IMG/VR virus record: IMGVR_UViG_2740892235_000015
Coordinates: 1 to 10,289 of that record
Origin: a virus
Taxonomy: Duplodnaviria; Heunggongvirae; Uroviricota; Caudoviricetes
Reading direction: 5' to 3' (one strand)
Length of the DNA: 10,289 nucleotides
Shown here: positions 1-9,750 of the stretch, one piece after another
Layout of the letters: each line of letters starts with the position of its first letter
How positions within the stretch are numbered: the stretch's first letter is position 1
Notes under the pieces: model-generated
What the model was told of the DNA's origin: nothing
The model's database searches: none
What the model saw: only the letters and a program-made list of their open reading frames with translations
Translations under genes and position numbers: made by a program

Positions 1-1242
1 ATGGCGAGAAAAACACCCCCATTAACCACAGTACAGATCAAAGCAGCCAGACCAGCAGAAAAGGAATACACCCTACAGGACGGCGGAGGGCTTTTTCTCC
101 TGATCAAACCGTCCGGATCAAAACTCTGGAGATTTTCCTACTACCGACCATCGGACAAAAAAAGAATATTGCTGAGTTTTGGATCGCTTGATGATGTTTC
201 CCTGGCTGATGCCAGAAAACGCCGTAGCGAGTACAGGGCGTTAATTCGTGCCGGAACTGACCCGCAGGACCACGAGAGGCAAAAAAGAGAGACAGAGGCC
301 CGAAGACAAGGGAACACGTTCGAAAATGTGGCAACAGCATGGTACCAGGTGAAAATCAGCCAGAATCTGGCCCCCAATACGATTAAAGACATCTGGCGAT
401 CGCTGGAAAAATATGTATTCCCGTTCATCGGCAACACGCCAATAGACACCCTGACCGCTCGCAGGTTCGTTGAGGTGCTTACCCCCATCAAGGAACGTGG
501 CAACCTGGAAACGCTCAAGCGAGTTTTACAGCGTATAAATGAGGTAATGGATTACGCCGCCAATAGTGGGATGATTGATGCCAATCCGGCTATGAATGTG
601 CGTAAGGCGTTCCCCTCCCCTGTAAAAAAACATATGCCAACAATCCGCCCCGAACAGCTGCCGGAGCTTATGCAGGCTTTATCAGTATCGGCAACAGAAC
701 GGCAGACCAGATTACTGATTGAATGGCAGTTACTGACCGTAACCCGTCCCGTTGAAGCATCGTCGGCACGCTGGGAAGAAATCGACATGGAAGCGCAACG
801 CTGGACCATACCCGCCGGACGCATGAAGATGCGCCGCGACCACGTTATCCCGCTTTGTGACCAGGCTATGGCAGTGCTGGAGGCTATGAAACCAATCAGC
901 CACCACCGCGATTATGTTTTCCCGAGTCTGAAAGACCCACAGCAGCCGATGAACAGCCAGACCGCTAACGCAGCATTACGACGCATGGGATTCGCTGGCG
1001 TGCTGGTGTCTCATGGATTACGCGCCATATTCAGCACAGCAGCGAACGAAGAAGGCTTTGAGCCGGACGTAATAGAGGCCGCACTTGCCCACGTCGACAC
1101 CAACGAAGTCAGACGGGCATACAACCGGAGCAACTACATAGAAAAACGCATCGTGCTTATGCGCTGGTGGGGCGAATTTGTCGAGGCTGCGGCGACGGGC
1201 GTAACCCTCGCCAGTGGTAAAAGGGGTATCCGAGCCGTTTAG
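1..1242 (+). CDS. int: Tyrosine recombinase, P4/CP4-57-type phage integrase
   Basis: 413-aa ORF. C-terminal catalytic signature of tyrosine recombinases (SHGLRAIFSTAANE ... EVRRAYNRSNY with terminal Tyr) and an N-terminal arm-binding-like region. Followed by an alpA-like gene as in P4-like islands. The window starts exactly at its ATG, so the att site would lie upstream, outside the window. Confidence 0.93.
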   Translation: MARKTPPLTTVQIKAARPAEKEYTLQDGGGLFLLIKPSGSKLWRFSYYRPSDKKRILLSFGSLDDVSLADARKRRSEYRALIRAGTDPQDHERQKRETEARRQGNTFENVATAWYQVKISQNLAPNTIKDIWRSLEKYVFPFIGNTPIDTLTARRFVEVLTPIKERGNLETLKRVLQRINEVMDYAANSGMIDANPAMNVRKAFPSPVKKHMPTIRPEQLPELMQALSVSATERQTRLLIEWQLLTVTRPVEASSARWEEIDMEAQRWTIPAGRMKMRRDHVIPLCDQAMAVLEAMKPISHHRDYVFPSLKDPQQPMNSQTANAALRRMGFAGVLVSHGLRAIFSTAANEEGFEPDVIEAALAHVDTNEVRRAYNRSNYIEKRIVLMRWWGEFVEAAATGVTLASGKRGIRAV

Positions 1243-1340
1243 CTGTACAGAAAACCAGTAAAAACTACGAAAACCATTTAAAACCGTCGTATAATTGCAT
1301 CACATTTAACGACGAGGCCTTGAAAAATGAAACTGTTAAG

Positions 1341-1571
1341 ATGCAAACAAATTTCAGATGCAATTGCGACGGGCTGCAACTGGCCCTGATGGTTCAGCAT
1401 GAATTTTGGTCAACCTACGATCCGGAGGACAGAACGACGGCCCCATCAAAAAAACAGGTAGTAGATTTCCTGGTATCCCGTGGGGCTTCCAGAAATCTGG
1501 CTGTAAGTATTGATAAGGTTGTACGTCCGGCATCCATGAAGACCGGAGGCAGGCCAAAAAAATGGCGGTAA
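1341..1571 (+). CDS. Hypothetical small protein (76 aa from ATG 1341; alternative TTG start at 1320)
   Basis: ORF ends 10 nt before a canonical rho-independent terminator. A perfect -10 hexamer TATAAT lies at 1290-1295, with a poor -35. The overlapping minus-strand ORF 1354..1620 has a less protein-like composition. No recognisable domain. Confidence 0.3.
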   Translation: MQTNFRCNCDGLQLALMVQHEFWSTYDPEDRTTAPSKKQVVDFLVSRGASRNLAVSIDKVVRPASMKTGGRPKKWR

Positions 1572-1581
1572 CAATCCTGAA

Positions 1582-1605
1582 AGCGGCAGAAATGCCGCTT
1601 TTTTT
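1582..1605 (+). terminator. Rho-independent terminator
   Basis: Stem AGCGGCA / TGCCGCT (7 bp) with loop GAAA, followed by a run of 7 T. Confidence 0.6.
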
Positions 1606-1632
1606 ATAAATCCCTTTCAAATCATCAATATA

Positions 1633-1720
1633 AAAAACGGTGTATACCGTTTAAAAACGGTGAGTACTGTTTTTCCCTGCATCCGATGATTTACCGTATT
1701 TCTCACCGGAATACACCGGA
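1633..1720 (+). promoter_or_regulatory. Repeat-rich region upstream of alpA (candidate promoter/operator or recombinase-binding sites)
   Basis: Direct repeat AAAAACGGTG at 1633-1642 and 1653-1662 (20-bp spacing). Inverted repeat ACGGT-gtat-ACCGT at 1637-1650. Direct repeat ACCGGA at 1705-1710 and 1715-1720. GAGG SD at 1726-1729, 9 nt before the alpA ATG. Confidence 0.3.
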
Positions 1721-1738
1721 TTAATGAGGTAAATCACG

Positions 1739-1945
1739 ATGGAAGCAATCAAAAAAGTCATCTTTCGCCAGGAAGTAAAAAAACTTATCCACATTAAGGC
1801 AGACAGCACGCTGCAAAGCATGATCAACGCCGGAGAATTCCCGCAGGGTTTTCGTGTCGGTTTGCGCCGTCGCGGATGGTATGAGGAAGACGTAATCGCA
1901 TGGATGAAAGAACGAGAACAAGAAGCGCGCGGAACGACCGCTTAA
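1739..1945 (+). CDS. alpA: AlpA-family helix-turn-helix regulator (prophage excision/transcription activator-like)
   Basis: 68 aa. Sequence pattern typical of the AlpA family (KKLIHIKADSTLQSMINAGEFPQGFRVGLRRRGWYEEDVIAWMKE). Position immediately downstream of int. GAGG SD. Confidence 0.8.
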   Translation: MEAIKKVIFRQEVKKLIHIKADSTLQSMINAGEFPQGFRVGLRRRGWYEEDVIAWMKEREQEARGTTA

Positions 1946-2066
1946 CATATATAGGGCAAATGATGAACATAAAAAAAGCGGCCCCGAAATGGAGCCACCT
2001 TTCTGAACAATTAACCCGCTGCGCCGTATGTGTCAACAATCATAAGCCTGGGCATGATAACCGCGA

Positions 2067-2270
2067 TCAGGCTGGTGGGCAATTATCTTTCTTGTTGGGG
2101 CCGTATTGTGCTGCCATTTTCATCCGTTCAGAACGTGAATATTTTTTTAGAAACTCATCAAGGACAAAAGCGCATGGTGCGAATCTTTCTGATTCATGCT
2201 CGAGCGCCATATTTTCGTGCTCTCTGTTCGTTTTTTGCGATGGTGTATCGGTTGATTCTTTATTGGTCAT
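2067..2270 (-). CDS. Hypothetical small protein (67 aa), second gene of RHH operon 1
   Basis: Minus-strand ORF starting MTNKESTD. Its ATG and first three codons (ATGACCAA) lie inside the conserved R1 element directly downstream of the RHH gene. SD is weak (AGG). No recognisable domain. Confidence 0.45.
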   Translation of the reverse strand: MTNKESTDTPSQKTNREHENMALEHESERFAPCAFVLDEFLKKYSRSERMKMAAQYGPNKKDNCPPA

Positions 2271-2323
2271 TGTGTGTACCTGTAAAGCAATGCGCCGTAG
2301 TACCTCACGCCACGGCGCTGATG
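2263..2323 (-). repeat. R1 copy a: conserved intercistronic element with stem-loop
   Basis: 45-nt core at 2279-2323 is identical to 3460-3504. Contains a hairpin, stem GCGCCGT / ACGGCGC with a 13-nt loop. TTGGTCAT at 2263-2270 (the start-codon region of the downstream minus gene) is also shared, with an 8-nt variable spacer between. Confidence 0.85.
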
Positions 2324-2327
2324 TTTT

Positions 2328-2501
2328 TTATCCTTTGGGTTCAATACCGCGTTGCTGTAATTCTTTTCGGAGTACTCGCTTGATCCAGGTGGCTAAAGAA
2401 GTGTCACCGTCTGCTTTCGCTGCCTCTTCAAGTTGTGCTCTGAATTCTTCTGGTAGCCGCATTTGGTATGGAGGCGATCGCTTTTCCAATGGTGTTGACA
2501 T
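2328..2501 (-). CDS. Ribbon-helix-helix (Arc/MetJ/CopG-type) DNA-binding protein, 57 aa
   Basis: Hand translation of the minus strand gives MSTPLEKRSPPYQMRLPEEFRAQLEEAAKADGDTSLATWIKRVLRKELQQRGIEPKG. The MRLPEEF...L...A......S...WI...L pattern is a classic RHH strand-helix-helix. AAGGG SD 9-10 nt upstream. Not in the supplied ORF track, presumably because it is below the length cutoff. Confidence 0.7.
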   Translation of the reverse strand: MSTPLEKRSPPYQMRLPEEFRAQLEEAAKADGDTSLATWIKRVLRKELQQRGIEPKG

Positions 2502-2541
2502 GGTAATTACCCTTAATTACTATAGTTACATGGTAATTACC
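2498..2541. promoter_or_regulatory. Candidate operator: two copies of the perfect palindrome GGTAATTACC
   Basis: ACATGGTAATTACC at 2498-2511 and 2528-2541, 30 bp centre to centre, with a TAATTAC half-site between them (2514-2520). Lies in the divergent region abutting the RHH start codon and upstream of the rightward leader. Confidence 0.5.
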
Positions 2542-2569
2542 ATTGTACTTACCGTTATACAAAAAACAA

Positions 2570-2611
2570 CGCCCCGCAGTGGTGGCTCACATACGGGGCG
2601 TCTAACCAAAC
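2570..2611 (+). repeat. R2 copy a: leader stem-loop plus conserved TCTAACCAA tail
   Basis: CGCCCCG-ca-GTG-gtggct-CAC-ata-CGGGGCG (2570-2600) followed by TCTAACCAAAC (2601-2611), then GAGG SD and ATG at 2632. Same architecture as 3822-3860. Confidence 0.6.
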
Positions 2612-2631
2612 CATTAATTGAGGTAACGATT

Positions 2632-2718
2632 ATGGCTATAAAAGAGCATAGCTTACTCTTTATACACNNNNNNNNNNTTCGCTGGCGGTTATGCAACTTA
2701 GTGCTGATATGGCGCTGA
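2632..2718 (+). pseudogene. Probable degenerate or interrupted Ash/Icd-like paralog
   Basis: Starts MAIKEHSLLFIH, paralleling the MVAVNHIPHLVH start of the 3881 gene, with the same upstream leader element. Interrupted after 12 codons by the N run. Reads IWR then stop after the gap where the paralog has VWRFLAL. Frame across the gap is unknowable. Confidence 0.3.
2668..2677. other. Run of 10 N (unknown sequence, possible scaffold gap or masked bases)
   Basis: Directly visible in the sequence. Confidence 1.
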
Positions 2719-2767
2719 ATGAGGCCAAAGCTATCCTGATTGCTGATTGTGAAAATGGGGGGGGGTT

Positions 2768-3001
2768 ATGCGTGATGATCGTTTTTATTCCCTGAAACAA
2801 GAATTTTCCGGCGTATCTGATGATGCGGCTGATGCGCTTTCGTCAATGCCAGAACTTATTAGAGCGGCTTTTTTCTTACTTTCCACGAAAGAATATAAAT
2901 CAACGGGACTTGATGTACTGAATATCGCCGCCGATTATGCGGAATATGTGGCAGAGGCGCGTTACAGAAGAAAATTTCCTGAGGATGTAAGCCATGCGTG
3001 A
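2768..3001 (+). CDS. Hypothetical small protein (77 aa)
   Basis: ORF MRDDRFYSLKQEF... with helical, protein-like composition. A G9 homopolymer immediately upstream serves as the SD region. The stop overlaps the start of the next ORF (ATGCGTGA), suggesting translational coupling. The opposite-strand ORF 2859..3116 looks like antisense noise. Confidence 0.5.
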   Translation: MRDDRFYSLKQEFSGVSDDAADALSSMPELIRAAFFLLSTKEYKSTGLDVLNIAADYAEYVAEARYRRKFPEDVSHA

Positions 3002-3210
3002 TATTTACCACGAAACAACAGAACGCGTATTTCTTGCACTTTCTCACAGTGAAAACATGCTGGAAATATTGCGCATATGGCTTGAAACACTTGGCGACAA
3101 TGAACGCGACAAACAAAAATCAAGAATTGTCACGGCATTAATAACGCTTCTTGAGCCTGTAATAAATGAGTTGCAGGAAATAGAGACATTGCACGACAGA
3201 TATAACGAAC
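2994..3210 (+). CDS. Hypothetical small acidic protein (at least 72 aa; 3' end lost in N run)
   Basis: ORF MRDIYHETTERVFLALSHSENMLEILRIWLETLGDNERDKQK..., with GAGGA SD at 2981-2985. Net acidic and helical. Runs into the N run at 3211, so the true stop is undefined. The 292-aa extension in the ORF track is antisense to real minus-strand genes and is not credible. Confidence 0.45.
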
Positions 3211-3220
3211 NNNNNNNNNN
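3211..3220. other. Run of 10 N (unknown sequence, possible scaffold gap or masked bases)
   Basis: Directly visible in the sequence. Lies between convergent genes. Confidence 1.
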
Positions 3221-3223
3221 TAC

Positions 3224-3451
3224 TCATCCTGGCGGGCGATTCTTACGGGACTTTAGCCGCCGTGGGCAGCTTGCTAAAAATGCCTCCAACGCGAATAGTC
3301 CAGGTTTCATTTCTATCGGTATTAGTTGGATATTCAGAGGATTAGCCAGTTCGGCTTCAAGGCGAGCACAGGTTTCTAACTGCCTTTGCCGAATGATTTC
3401 ATCTTCTTGCGTATGCGTGTCTTGTATTGGTGATAGTGTGTTGTTGGTCAT
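3224..3451 (-). CDS. Hypothetical small protein (75 aa), second gene of RHH operon 2
   Basis: Minus-strand ORF starting MTNNTLSP. Start region ATGACCAA is shared with the 2067..2270 gene and embedded in the R1 element. The stop codon is reached before the N run, so the ORF is complete as shown. No recognisable domain. Confidence 0.45.
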   Translation of the reverse strand: MTNNTLSPIQDTHTQEDEIIRQRQLETCARLEAELANPLNIQLIPIEMKPGLFALEAFLASCPRRLKSRKNRPPG

Positions 3452-3504
3452 GGTACTGCCCTGTAAAGCAATGCGCCGTAGTACCTCACGCCACGGCGCT
3501 GATG
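3444..3504 (-). repeat. R1 copy b: conserved intercistronic element with stem-loop
   Basis: 45-nt core at 3460-3504 is identical to 2279-2323. TTGGTCAT at 3444-3451 is also shared. Sits between the stop of RHH gene 2 and the start of the downstream small gene. Confidence 0.85.
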
Positions 3505-3508
3505 GTGA

Positions 3509-3688
3509 TTATTCTGATTCTTTGGCCTTGCGACGCTGGCGGTATTCAACTTCCCGCTTTAATGCAGCTGTAACAAACTGCCCTGTACTTTCGCCGGGCA
3601 TTTTTACCGCCTCAACATTGTTCATAACTTCATGTGGAACCCTTGCCGCAACTGTTTGTGATTTTGCGTTTACTGCTTTTGTCGCCAT
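3509..3688 (-). CDS. Probable ribbon-helix-helix DNA-binding protein, 59 aa
   Basis: From ATG at 3688: MATKAVNAKSQTVAARVPHEVMNNVEAVKMPGESTGQFVTAALKREVEYRQRRKAKESE. RHH-like strand (TVAARVPHEV) followed by two short helices. GAGGGG SD 8 nt upstream. The ORF-track start at 3697 is a GTG. Confidence 0.6.
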   Translation of the reverse strand: MATKAVNAKSQTVAARVPHEVMNNVEAVKMPGESTGQFVTAALKREVEYRQRRKAKESE

Positions 3689-3717
3689 GTTGAGCACCCC
3701 TCATAAAAAACAAATGC

Positions 3718-3814
3718 AGTATGCAGGAAAAAAAATAAGTGTTCAACACTTGACGTGTTTAACACCTCGATTTAAATTGGTGTTCAACACCTTATTTAGG
3801 CAAGGTGTTGAAAC
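3718..3814. promoter_or_regulatory. Divergent promoter/operator region of module 2
   Basis: Rightward sigma70-like promoter: -35 TTGACG (3750-3755), 17-nt spacer, -10 TAAATT (3773-3778). Leftward: -35 TTGAAC (complement of 3741-3746), 17-nt spacer, -10 CATACT (complement of 3718-3723). Inverted-repeat motif GTGTT-N-AACAC at 3739-3749, 3755-3765 and 3780-3790, plus a half-site variant at 3805-3814, overlapping both promoters. Confidence 0.5.
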
Positions 3815-3820
3815 GACGAA

Positions 3821-3860
3821 ACCCCGCACTGTAGGAGCAGTAACGGGGCTTCTAACCAAC
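3821..3860 (+). repeat. R2 copy b: leader stem-loop plus conserved TCTAACCAAC tail
   Basis: CCCCG-c-ACTG-taggag-CAGT-aa-CGGGG (3822-3848) followed by TCTAACCAAC (3851-3860), then AGGAG SD and ATG at 3881. Both stems differ in sequence from copy a but keep the same architecture. Confidence 0.6.
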
Positions 3861-3880
3861 AACGTAAACTAGGAGCCGTT

Positions 3881-4444
3881 ATGGTTGCTGTAAATCATAT
3901 ACCACACCTTGTACACACACAAACTGCCTTTGTGTGGCGTTTTCTGGCCCTGAATATCGGAGAAAAAAACCAGTTGATCGCCAGTGTCGAAAATAGCTAT
4001 GATTCCCGCGCACCTCATAAAACGGGTGTCGGGATTAGCCTCCTGAAAACAACTGAAGCGCACAGCACGCGCCCCGCGTGTTTTTTTGTGCCGCATAGTC
4101 ACACCTTATCAATGGTGGGCTGTACGGGGGCGGAGCAATCCGCGCCGGTTTCTTCAGTGTCCGGTAAGGCTAACCCTGTACAGTCCGCCACCAGCGAAAT
4201 TAGCCTTTTGCGTGGCGGTTATCTTAACCACACTGAGGAGGCTGCCAACATGGCTACTACCCCTGCCCTCGTACATTCTCAAACAGCCTTTATCTGGCGC
4301 TTTATTGCCTTTGGCGCGTCAGACCATCAAATCATCCACGTAACCGCCTGGACGGAACGCGAAGCGCGTAACCGTTGCCCGTACGGTTGTGTTGCTGTGT
4401 TCGCCGCCCGTATTCGTCAGGGGGCGCACCATGCACAATTATGA
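3881..4444 (+). CDS. Tandem-repeat protein, possibly Ash/Icd-like (P4-associated family)
   Basis: 187 aa with an internal duplication: LVHTQTAFVWRFLAL near the N-terminus and LVHSQTAFIWRFIAF around residue 130. AGGAG SD at 3871-3875. An in-frame internal ATG at 4250 is preceded by GAGGAGG (4235-4241). Family assignment is from memory of Icd-like sequences (FxWRF and NRC motifs) and is unverified. Confidence 0.55.
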   Translation: MVAVNHIPHLVHTQTAFVWRFLALNIGEKNQLIASVENSYDSRAPHKTGVGISLLKTTEAHSTRPACFFVPHSHTLSMVGCTGAEQSAPVSSVSGKANPVQSATSEISLLRGGYLNHTEEAANMATTPALVHSQTAFIWRFIAFGASDHQIIHVTAWTEREARNRCPYGCVAVFAARIRQGAHHAQL

Positions 4445-4631
4445 AGCGCACTTACCTGTAGTTCTTAATGTGCCGTCAGATTATACGGGACGCGTTTTGA
4501 TATTTCTCGATAAAGGGAAAGTGAAATCACAATGCCGCCTTAGAAATAATGAGGTTGTTGGTTCTCTGGCTTTTTTTTCTGAGGCCTGTATTCGTGCCGG
4601 AATAAAACTTGAATCACTGACAGGAAAATAA
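4431..4631 (+). CDS. Hypothetical small protein (66 aa)
   Basis: ATG at 4431 preceded by a GGGGG SD. Overlaps the 3' end of the upstream gene by 14 nt. No recognisable domain. Confidence 0.4.
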   Translation: MHNYEAHLPVVLNVPSDYTGRVLIFLDKGKVKSQCRLRNNEVVGSLAFFSEACIRAGIKLESLTGK

Positions 4632-7669: not shown

Positions 7670-7864
7670 ATGCCAGAGAACAACACCAGAAAGCCGGATA
7701 AAAGTGCCACGGTACACATAGACGCCGGAACTATGGAGAAGATCGAACGCTATCAGCAGTTCATCAAAGATAATCACCCGGGTATGCCAGTGCCCACGAA
7801 AGGACAAATCACACGCAGCGCGGTTGAATACTGGTACAGGGCAACGTTAGGAGCCTGGCTATGA
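7670..7864 (+). CDS. Hypothetical small protein (64 aa)
   Basis: ATG at 7670 with GGAGG SD at 7658-7662. Stop overlaps the start of the protease/capsid gene (ATGA). No recognisable domain. Confidence 0.5.
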   Translation: MPENNTRKPDKSATVHIDAGTMEKIERYQQFIKDNHPGMPVPTKGQITRSAVEYWYRATLGAWL

Positions 7865-9750
7865 AAACATGGTTTTCCATTAAGGCTATGGCAGATGTTG
7901 TACATGTGCGCATTTATGACGAGATCGGCGGGTACGGTGTAAAAGCATCGGCACTTACTGACGAGATCAACGCGTGTGGTAATGCGTCTGAAATCCATCT
8001 TCGCATCCATTCACCTGGTGGCGACATCTTTGAAGGGCTGGCTATCTATAACGCTCTGAAAAATCATCCGGCAAAAAAAATCGTACACATTGAAGGCATG
8101 GCGGCTTCTATGGCGTCGTTTATTGCCATGTGTGGAGATCACATCGTTATGCCTGAAAACGCGATGATGATGATACATGCCCCCCGTGGTGTTACTGCCG
8201 GAGTGTCGGGCGACGTTCGCCGCTTTGCTGATCTGATGGACAAGCTGGGCGACACGATGGCAGAAACCTATGCCGGAAGAACGGGCAGGAGCAAACAGGA
8301 GATCACCTCAATGATGGAGGCGGAAACCTGGATGGATGGCAATGAGTGTAAGGCTAACGGCTTCGCAGATGAGGTTATACCCGCGATTACAGCAATGGCC
8401 CGAATTGAATCAAAACGAATCGGAGATTTTTCAAATATGCCGGAAAAAATTAAAAGCATGATCAGCCAGAAAACTGGCAGTGGCGAACAGGAACGACTTA
8501 ACGGAATCCGTGAATTGTTTGGCACCTTCAACGGAAGATATAACGACCTGGCTATAAGTTGTCTTGCGGATTCAGAATGTAGCGTTGAGAATGCACGCGA
8601 ACGCCTTTTACTCGCTATGGGTAAAGAATCAACGCCAACAAACAAAACCACCCCCGCAAATCTTTACTACGCGTACACGGATAACGGCAATATAACTGGC
8701 GATGCCATGCGTCAGGGGCTTAATGCGCGTCTTGGTCACGAACGGGCCGAACGCGGTAATCCTTACGCCATGATGAGTCTTTTCGATATGGCACAGGCAT
8801 CATTAACCCATCGTGGTATAAGCACGGGCAGCTACAGCACACGCTCGCAGATAGTAAACGCGGCATTCACCCACAGCAGCAGCGATTTTACAGATATCCT
8901 TGCTGGTGGCGCTGAAAAATCAGTGCTTGCAGGCTGGGAGCACAGCGGCGAAACATTCCGCCAGTGGACGAAAAAAGGTTCCCTTTCAAACTTCCGGGAA
9001 GCCCGCCGCGTTGGTATGAATGGCTTCTCAACGTTAAACAAAGTGCCGGAAGGGGCAGAATATAAATACATCACCACCAGCGATCGCGGTGAACCCATCG
9101 CGCTGGCTACTTACGGGAATATTTTCAGCATTACCCGCCAGGCGATAATCAATGATGACCTTGATCAGTTATCAACGGTGCCAATGGCTATGGGCCGTGC
9201 AGCATCAAGAACGGTGGGAAATCTGGTTAATCTGGTGCTTACAGGCAACGTAAAACTTTCTGACGGAATAACGCTGTTTGACAAAAAACACAGCAACCTG
9301 ATTGAAGCAGGACTGACAACACCGGGACTTAGTGCAGCACGTCACCTGATGCGCACACAGAAGGACAAAAATGGCGAAGTGCTGAATATTGCGCCTAAAT
9401 TCCTTTTAGTTCCGGCAGCACTGGAAGATCGCGCGTTGCAGATGATTAACTCAACCGCACCTTTCGGGGCTGATAAAAACAGCGGGATCTTTAACCCGTA
9501 CCACAAGCTACTTGATATCATCGTCGATCCCCGCCTTGATGATATCAGCGAAAAACAATGGTACATGCTTTCCGCACAGGGAACGGACACAATCGAGGTG
9601 GCTTATCTTGATGGCAATGACGAGCCTTACCTTGAACAGCAGGAAGGTTTTATCGTTGACGGCGTGGCCTGGAAAGTCCGTATTGATGCAGGTGTGGCAG
9701 CTCTGGATTATCGCGGTATGGTCAAATCAGGCGGTACCGATTCACTATGA
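7861..9750 (+). CDS. Prohead protease (ClpP-like, S14) fused to HK97-like major capsid protein
   Basis: 629 aa. The N-terminal ~190 aa match the ClpP pattern (IHSPGGDIFEGLAIYNALK ... GMAASMASFIAMCGD ... MMIHAPRGV, compare ClpP INSPGG, AASMGAF, MIHQP). The C-terminal ~300 aa resemble the HK97-fold major capsid family. A linker or scaffold-like region lies between. AGGAG SD. Confidence 0.88.
   Translation: MKTWFSIKAMADVVHVRIYDEIGGYGVKASALTDEINACGNASEIHLRIHSPGGDIFEGLAIYNALKNHPAKKIVHIEGMAASMASFIAMCGDHIVMPENAMMMIHAPRGVTAGVSGDVRRFADLMDKLGDTMAETYAGRTGRSKQEITSMMEAETWMDGNECKANGFADEVIPAITAMARIESKRIGDFSNMPEKIKSMISQKTGSGEQERLNGIRELFGTFNGRYNDLAISCLADSECSVENARERLLLAMGKESTPTNKTTPANLYYAYTDNGNITGDAMRQGLNARLGHERAERGNPYAMMSLFDMAQASLTHRGISTGSYSTRSQIVNAAFTHSSSDFTDILAGGAEKSVLAGWEHSGETFRQWTKKGSLSNFREARRVGMNGFSTLNKVPEGAEYKYITTSDRGEPIALATYGNIFSITRQAIINDDLDQLSTVPMAMGRAASRTVGNLVNLVLTGNVKLSDGITLFDKKHSNLIEAGLTTPGLSAARHLMRTQKDKNGEVLNIAPKFLLVPAALEDRALQMINSTAPFGADKNSGIFNPYHKLLDIIVDPRLDDISEKQWYMLSAQGTDTIEVAYLDGNDEPYLEQQEGFIVDGVAWKVRIDAGVAALDYRGMVKSGGTDSL

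Follow-up and report, generated by a model that had tools for sequence, protein, structure and literature searches.

The question raised by this locus is what is made from an open reading frame (ORF) of 187 codons that occupies positions 3881..4444 on the plus strand of the window, by which we mean the whole 10,289-nt stretch of viral DNA (Caudoviricetes; IMG/VR record IMGVR_UViG_2740892235_000015) that was analyzed. The initial annotation had read the ORF as an Ash/Icd-like gene containing two copies of a ~50-aa unit, from which a full-length two-domain protein and a shorter single-domain isoform could both be produced. Our analyses led to a different reading. The ORF, of 187 aa, is a long nested frame of the type of the P4 eta frame, which begins at a recycled icd start and then passes, in one frame, through an inner promoter-like site, an isrK-type small RNA gene, a C4 RNA gene and the targets of C4 before it runs into icd. 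We hold this anatomy with high confidence. We also consider it probable, with less assurance, that the locus, together with the mechanism proposed below, constitutes an RNA-immunity switch of a PICI/P4-type satellite rather than the gene of a two-domain protein.

The internal repeat is real, although it is shorter than had been supposed. Motifs LVHTQTAFVWRFLAL and LVHSQTAFIWRFIAF are both present in the translation of the ORF, and at the protein level the two units gave a local alignment score of 79 versus 23.9 ± 4.2 in 2000 shuffles. A chance origin of the repeat was ruled out (z = 13). At the DNA level, 3907-3949 and 4267-4309 share 32 of 43 positions (z = 9.5). A seed-based repeat search of the window did not return the repeat of unit 1 and unit 2 because it lacks a 9-nt exact seed, and it was confirmed by local alignment and shuffling instead. 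The clearly repeated part measures ~17 aa (43 nt), and the identity between its copies is only 74%. Of the two ~50-aa units, the repetition itself stands, whereas the extent does not; comparison with intact relatives shows that unit 1 amounts to 28 codons of an icd gene.

Copy 2 of the repeat (4267-4309) lies within a compact gene of 64 aa at 4250..4444 on the plus strand, whose product matches the NF033153 phage_ICD_like model with 62.4 bits (cut-off 25), aligns with P4 Kil and P1-type Icd, and is PGAP protein WP_028985255.1 on identical DNA. The protein is predicted to be cell-division-inhibitor-like; its P1 Icd and P4 Kil relatives are toxic. Its ATG at 4250 is in frame with that at 3881 (the difference is divisible by 3) and is preceded, with an 8-nt spacer, by the Shine-Dalgarno (SD) sequence GAGGAGG at 4235-4241, exactly as the initial annotation had observed. 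An alignment of the window with islands L005 and L006, an Stx phage (L007), a P1-like phage (L008) and P4 (L009) revealed that the string comprising SD and start, AGGAGGCTGCCAnnATGG, is invariant in all six, from P1 to P4. At the position of ATG 4250, the annotation of the P1-like phage places the start of its icd, and the 65-aa Kil of P4 begins with this codon. On DNA 100% identical to the window in Escherichia coli 94-3024, PGAP likewise has a gene of its own at 4250-4444, named "host cell division inhibitor Icd-like protein", and a pseudo "ash family protein" at 3881-4219. These comparisons indicate that ATG 4250 is a genuine, conserved start and the real start of icd, since only unit 2 matches NF033153, PGAP places a gene there and the SD and start are invariant. 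The proposed affiliation to the Icd family is thus upheld for unit 2 but not for unit 1 (3881-4249), for which no NF033153 match was obtained at E ≤ 1, and the Ash match has another explanation, given below.

The surroundings of the gene fit a satellite. The next gene (4431..4631, plus strand) encodes a hypothetical protein of 66 aa, and its start and the end of icd share 14 nt, an overlap that may cause translational coupling by analogy with icd-ant of P1. It is followed by a DUF4222 gene and an AAA_25 helicase gene; an antirepressor gene (ant) was not among these three genes after icd. Upstream are a divergent gene of the YlcI/YnfO family (3509-3697, minus strand; PGAP name on identical DNA) and, 1.9 kb from the long ORF with minus-strand genes between, an alpA-like gene (1739-1945). 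The gene content of the element, with an integrase, an alpA-like HTH protein, DUF4222, a helicase, SSB and a ClpP-capsid fusion, fits a PICI-type island.

Between the two units lie two RNA genes. The first, an isrK-type sRNA or seqA-like leader at 4010..4086 (plus strand), matches Rfam RF01394 with 61.8 bits (gathering 50; E = 1.3e-11), and a terminator scan placed an intrinsic terminator in it, consisting of a hairpin at 4064-4082 and a subsequent T run. It contains the upstream C4 targets, b1 (UUAGCCU, 4035-4041) and a1 (ACUGAAG, 4052-4058). The second, a C4/CI-type antisense RNA at 4108..4195 (plus strand), matches RF01695 over the full length of the model (1-87) with 75.4 bits (gathering 45; E = 1e-13), has a tRNA-like acceptor stem with an ACCA end and two hairpins, and folds with a minimum free energy of -47 kcal/mol. 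Its recognition loop a' is UUUCUUCAGUGU (4149-4160) and its single-stranded b' is AAGGCUAA (4166-4173). The positional counterpart of the orf45 start of Gifsy-1 is an in-frame ATG within C4, at 4112. The C4 RNA of P1/P7 and the CI RNA of P4 are known to be released from their leader transcripts by RNase P and to act as repressors in vivo. The Pfam Phage_ASH match (PF10554; 44.3 bits versus gathering 26) covers aa 40-133, or nt 3998-4279, and is therefore located between the two units and on top of isrK and C4. In other words, the sequence called an "Ash family protein" results from translating a pair of regulatory RNA genes. A literature search on the Ash family, PF10554 and Icd-like proteins found no relevant work.

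The kind of constraint acting on this stretch was evident from a comparison of related loci. A profile scan of genome contigs with a narrower Icd/Kil alignment gave only three Escherichia/Shigella loci, and the comparison was therefore based on E. coli genomes and a scan of IMG/VR for exact occurrences of the SD-start string. The scan yielded 120 IMG/VR loci, and with the E. coli and phage loci the pattern hits numbered 130; such a scan is biased towards its own class and under-samples the Gifsy-1-type frame. C4 and isrK were found upstream of the SD-start string in 119 of the 130 hits. Among 40 distinct C4 homologues, the 28 predicted base pairs are 99.4% canonical, and 18 of them exhibit compensatory double changes. 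Column variability in the leader is practically the same at codon positions 1, 2 and 3 (0.84/0.86/0.83), so that no codon periodicity is present, whereas the icd coding sequence has the third-position excess expected of a gene (0.97/0.98/1.30). Seen as a protein-coding domain, the Phage_ASH stretch accordingly fails, as its variation has no codon periodicity and its RNA pairs covary. Because the leader lacks periodicity and C4 has compensatory changes, we conclude that the peptide of 3965-4249 is not under protein-level selection and that the constraint is on RNA structure.

The strong SD also takes on a different meaning when the downstream targets of C4 are considered. These targets (4200..4241, plus strand), equivalent to seqC or a2b2, consist of b2 (UUAGCCUU, 4200-4207) and a2 (ACACUGAGGAGG, 4230-4241), and the GAGGAGG at 4235-4241 is contained in a2. 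A C4 target over the SD is the arrangement of a2/b2 in P1 and seqC in P4. Loop a' is complementary to a2 at 12 of 12 positions, three of them G.U, with an RNAduplex energy of -14.7 kcal/mol for a duplex drawn with 11 pairs, and the 8 nt of b' and b2 pair with -9.0 kcal/mol. In a 6 × 6 RNAduplex matrix of C4 RNAs against downstream targets, the cognate duplex was the best in every row. The corresponding matrix for the upstream targets in isrK was noisy because stem sequences were free to pair, and explicit complementary strings were used there instead; in the window the a1 and b1 complementarity is short (7 + 7 nt). Between loci, a', b' and both pairs of targets co-vary, and the specificity loops of C4 differ between the window and P4. 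The complete complementarity of a' and a2, the cognate-best matrix and the co-variation of three sites together argue that the SD is a target of C4. The initial annotation had considered dosage control plausible for the two isoforms, but the internal SD is better explained, on the strength of these predicted pairings and of the co-variation of loop and target, as a site of C4 repression.

What, then, is unit 1? This icd-like 5' fragment (3870..3964, plus strand) comprises an SD (TAGGAG, 3870-3875) and, from ATG 3881 on, the 28 opening codons of a gene, and copy 1 of the repeat (3907-3949) sits within it. In the related islands L002-L004, a plain icd gene of 65 aa directly follows the same leader and SD, and positions 3846-3964 of the window have 96% identity to the promoter-proximal part of the intact L002 gene. 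Unit 1 corresponds to codons 1-28 of those 65 and is without the conserved TEREAR...ARIRQ half. Similarity of the window to the L002-type icd ends at 3964 and restarts at 4267 with 84% identity, and 58 nt of the plain icd (L002 2562-2619) are present twice in the window, flanking the cassette. From 3966 onward the window has homology to the L005 island, in which the cassette is shared and the upstream ORF has another start. A recombination junction is thereby placed at 3964..3965, where there is GAGAA microhomology and where the join is in frame (4250 - 3965 is divisible by 3). With 3881-4050 as a junction-spanning query, the junction was found in 143 of 5426 complete E. coli genomes, and ~545 of the 5426 matched nt 3881-3964 only, within plain Icd-like genes. 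The downstream icd is closest to the cassette-type icd of L005 and L006 (90% and 83% aa identity). Taken together, these comparisons indicate that the promoter, SD and 28 initial codons that make up unit 1 come from a separate icd paralogue and are fused in frame to the cassette, and that the locus is a chimera of two diverged icd-type paralogues. The suggestion in the initial annotation that two genes had been fused was therefore borne out, with L002 homology up to 3964 and the cassette after it. It is the in-frame join at 3964/3965 that gives rise both to the apparent internal duplication and to the 187-codon ORF.

Two promoter-like sites flank this start. The outer one, TTGACG-N17-TAAATT at 3750-3778 (region 3739..3790, plus strand), is a consensus match from which we infer its function, and it is flanked and overlapped by two GTGTTCAACAC palindromes (3739-3749 and 3780-3790). 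These palindromes, which face the divergent YlcI/YnfO-family gene, we infer to be operator-like. The inner site, TTGATC-N18-TATGAT at 3974..4003 (plus strand), is likewise a consensus match; the last position of its -10 hexamer is 7 nt upstream of the 5' end of isrK, within the long ORF, and it is the putative promoter equivalent in position to PLE of P4. Both predicted promoters of the locus are recognized by their consensus matches, and the mechanism considered here is modeled on P1, P4 and Gifsy-1.

The locus holds a self-contained cassette at ~3965-4266, composed of the inner promoter-like site, the isrK/seqA-type leader with its terminator, C4, and the SD-containing target, and followed by icd. 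In the mechanism that we favor, transcripts from the inner promoter would either yield IsrK by termination at ~4086 or read through and be processed to C4, whose a' and b' would then pair with two sets of targets, a1/b1 within the leader and a2/b2, which covers the SD. The latter pairing would block translation of icd and thus expression of the replication genes behind it. Transcription from the operator-flanked outer promoter would differ in giving RNAs that carry ATG 3881, and ribosomes starting there would cross isrK, the terminator, C4 and the targets and so keep the RNA elements from folding and pairing. The downstream genes could then escape immunity, as they do with eta translation in P4, and selection would act on the act of translating the long frame and not on the peptide. 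By this analogy with P4, an eta-like bypass of immunity through translation of the long frame is a proposition for which we would give even odds. A more general idea, which we advance tentatively and regard as somewhat less probable than the bypass itself, is that satellite frames over immunity RNAs are kept open to drive ribosomes through the switch, and not for their peptides, and that their start modules are interchangeable, with a recycled icd promoter-SD-ATG stump under operator control having been recruited here, by an in-frame illegitimate junction, as an eta-like entry point. If true, "Ash family proteins" would be a class of frames over RNA genes that are translated but not selected as proteins.

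The most serious rival to the bypass is that the long ORF is a by-product, in which a dead icd 5' scar left by recombination is in frame by accident and function resides only in the RNAs and the 64-aa Icd; translation from 3881 would then be noise, or would end on terminated transcripts and be cleared. We consider this unlikely, although it has several points in its favor. PGAP treats 3881-4219 as a pseudogene, the leader is without amino-acid-level constraint, and a junction is in frame by chance in one case of three. Moreover, P1-like and Stx phages employ the same RNA system despite stops in the frame, which means that an open frame is unnecessary for the RNA system itself. Against it, the promoter, SD and ATG of the stump are retained at 96% identity to functional copies, and translation of P4 eta is an experimentally supported precedent. 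Conservation of the frame argues in the same direction. From the 5' end of isrK to the ATG, the frame of ATG 4250 is stop-free in 34 of 40 leader clusters compared with none and nine for the other two frames, although openness is partly inherited and these are not 34 independent events; the exceptions are the P1-type and Stx-type phages, with their stops inside isrK, and one tandem-cassette locus (L109). Upstream of the cassette edge, the same frame is open for at least 20 codons in 25 of 36 distinct contexts versus 13 and 5 for the others, and it is the longest of the three in 20 of the 36. An ATG preceded by an SD occurs upstream in 15 of the 36 contexts, a purely descriptive count, as the other frames are closed by stops and offer no fair control. 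Four diverged relatives (93-95% identity) hold the whole frame of at least 187 codons open with no indels, including where all three sites have switched to a different b specificity.

A true two-domain Icd-Icd protein accompanied by a single-domain isoform, with the ratio of the two setting the dose of a division inhibitor, is highly improbable in comparison with the immunity switch. It draws on the presence of two significantly similar motifs in one frame, on the strong internal start, and on the general knowledge that Icd/Kil relatives are toxic. Yet unit 1 is a stump that stops at codon 28 of 65, with neither the conserved C-terminal half nor an NF033153 match; the "linker" of ~95 codons consists of the promoter-like site, isrK with its terminator, and C4, RNA genes that covary and have no codon periodicity; and the SD co-varies with the loop of an antisense RNA. 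Production of a full-length and a short form from one frame nevertheless has a direct precedent from experiments on P4 eta/kil (PMC10111431, citing Forti 1999), so that this element of the initial annotation survives, whereas the description of the full-length form as a two-domain protein does not. Least probable of all is that the RNA cassette inserted into one icd gene and caused a recent tandem or target-site duplication there. In its favor, 58 nt of the L002 icd do occur on either side of the cassette. However, copy 1 has 96% identity to L002 but just 74% to copy 2, and the downstream icd is nearest to the cassette-type genes of L005 and L006, so that a chimera of paralogues is indicated instead.

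The reading as an immunity switch has consequences beyond the window, as a common locus of E. coli islands has to be re-read: the junction occurs in the 143 complete genomes, and the cassette in many more. In those loci the internal ATG is where the Icd-like protein begins, and its strong SD is the target of the antisense RNA that determines the specificity of satellite immunity. In addition, the locus represents a natural experiment for the idea from P4 that an RNA switch is overridden when a frame spanning it is translated, given that the same cassette is found behind several unrelated start modules and that a single species contains both the plain-icd and the cassette version. Matches to C4 and isrK inside PICI genes had already been noted in PMC10111431. 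Specific to the window are the recycled icd 5' stump as a start module and the reading of the Ash match as two translated RNA genes. For annotation, our results suggest that PF10554 matches should be compared with the Rfam C4 and isrK models.

Three known systems provide the framework for comparison. The immI operon of P1/P7 is reported to have the order c4 - icd - ant. In P1, as in the window, C4 is upstream of icd and is flanked by a1/b1 and a2/b2, with a2 covering the ribosome-binding site of icd. The P1-like locus L008 aligns with the window position for position, SD and start included. The two differ in that P1-type loci have stops inside isrK and hence are without a long nested ORF, whereas the frame in the window is open, and in that icd of the window is followed by the 66-aa hypothetical, DUF4222 and helicase genes in place of ant, which overlaps or follows icd in P1 immI.

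In Gifsy-1 of Salmonella, an isrK sRNA with a leaky terminator is followed by a processed RNA of ~80 nt (STnc1160), a C4 homologue that is overlapped by orf45 (PMC4825925). Translation of orf45 was demonstrated experimentally, its nucleotide sequence is conserved while its amino-acid sequence is not, and the downstream gene, anrP, needs orf45 translation (PMC4825925). This parallels the window in the presence of a frame over C4, but orf45 ends at the anrP start (AUGA) and anrP is in another frame, whereas the frame in the window runs into icd; the downstream gene is an antirepressor gene in Gifsy-1 and Icd-like in the window.

The greatest resemblance is to P4, where an ORF at 8812..8168 on the minus strand (214 codons from its first ATG versus 187 in the window) spans a promoter-like site (8728-8699, minus strand), isrK (8692-8615), C4 (8507-8420; the CI RNA) and the 65-aa Kil, which succeed one another in the order seen in the window, with Kil in the frame of the ORF. 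In both systems the SD AGGAGGCUGCCA precedes the start of the Kil/Icd-like protein of 64-65 aa. The two ORFs are collinear from the C4 region to the end of Kil (BLASTP E = 7e-7), and within each system the loops and targets are complementary. According to PMC10111431, which cites Forti et al. 1999, PLE lies within eta and pairing of CI with seqA terminates the PLE transcript, Kil is a shortened form of Eta, translation of the complete Eta depends on an upstream late promoter as its only source, and Eta translation prevents termination. The antisense target arrangement of the P4 seqC type is also summarized in PMC10111431 and PMC4825925. A P4-like feature of the window is a long ORF that is in frame with the kil/icd start and spans the immunity RNA. 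The N-terminal part of P4 eta is unrelated and continues from the alpA/orf88 region, whereas that of the window is the recycled icd 5' end behind an operator-flanked promoter-like site. P4 eta is located behind an alpA homologue, to which it is said to be coupled, and a late promoter, and since the alpA-like gene of the window is 1.9 kb away with opposite-strand genes between, its upstream control must differ from that of P4. P4 also has ~80 extra nt between the terminator and CI, its downstream replication gene is the alpha primase in place of an AAA_25 RepA-type helicase, and it differs from the window element, which is of the PICI type in carrying a ClpP-capsid fusion. As for the "Bro zone" immunity RNAs of Gram-negative PICIs and HE-PICIs, Mageeney et al. 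2023 reported Rfam C4 and isrK matches inside genes of enterobacterial PICIs and explained them by the P4 eta/kil model (PMC10111431). Neither the chimera of an icd 5' stump and cassette nor the overlap of Pfam Ash with the RNA genes is described in the passages of that paper that were consulted, and both are features of the window. Overall, the system in the window belongs to the C4/CI-isrK/seqA-icd/kil immunity family and is closest to P4 eta/kil.

The match to the Pfam Ash protein family (PF10554) in the 187-codon ORF spans window positions 3998-4279 (residues 40-133) and is coextensive with the two RNA genes identified by Rfam, isrK and the C4 antisense RNA. Since this stretch has RNA covariation, and codon periodicity was not found within it, PF10554 may largely be a model of translated RNA genes, that is, of a frame of the eta type, the long nested frame of P4. 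In the window and homologous loci in IMG/VR, approximately six initial codons, MATxP[A/T]L (4250-4266), are common to downstream proteins that are otherwise unrelated (Icd/Kil-like, Rha/AnrP-like and a 77-aa protein), which places the right-hand boundary of the mobile RNA cassette within coding sequence. In the icd 5' stump, repeat copy 1 contains the hairpin CACACAAACTGCCTTTGTGTG (3916-3936) with a T-rich tail behind it, which is terminator-like by its score in a simple scan. The hairpin also occurs in plain icd genes and is missing from repeat copy 2.

Related islands have further versions of this arrangement. In L002, an island with a plain 65-aa icd, and L005, an island that shares the RNA cassette, a second C4 lies inside a 154-aa ORF annotated as "Icd-like" (L002 2726-3190; L005 2969-3433), accompanied in L002 by a match to RF03163 (a1b1). 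The ORF has a C-terminal Icd-like domain with its own internal start (MAV...), and the two together form another nested pair, which stands in tandem with the first. Comparison of 701-1261 of the loci L135 and L136 with window 3881-4444 revealed that b is changed jointly at isrK b1, C4 b' and the downstream b2, with the same a' as in the window and an unbroken 187-codon frame. These loci represent a natural variant of the window's chimera that differs in immunity specificity. The specificity of the C4 at L002 2881-2968 is also other than that of the window's C4. The loop (3827-3838, CACUGUAGGAGC) of a hairpin at 3822-3848 in the outer leader is complementary throughout, G.U pairs included, to the a' loop of that L002 C4, so the outer transcript of the window could be a target for immunity RNA from another island.

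Upstream of the long ORF lies what looks like a regulatory module duplicated in tandem. Each of the two modules has a pair of small minus-strand genes (2067-2270/2328-2501 and 3224-3451/3509-3697) with one copy of a 75-nt direct repeat (2260-2334 and 3441-3515; 85% identical) between them, and a 49-nt leader hairpin repeat (2561-2609 and 3811-3859; 71%) lies ahead of each plus-strand start. Two runs of 10 N (masked or unknown bases) are located at 2668-2677 and 3211-3220, and ORFs spanning them are unreliable.

In the late region, a single 629-aa ORF (7861-9750) has a ClpP-type prohead protease domain fused to a major capsid domain, whereas the otherwise similar island of Escherichia coli strain 94-3024 has separate capsid and HK97 protease genes; the window is therefore a mosaic. 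At the end of icd, a 66-aa ORF (ATG 4431) overlaps it by 14 nt (4431-4444), and an ATGA at 4441-4444 likewise overlaps the icd stop. Icd and this next ORF may be translationally coupled, a possible arrangement similar to that of icd-ant in P1.
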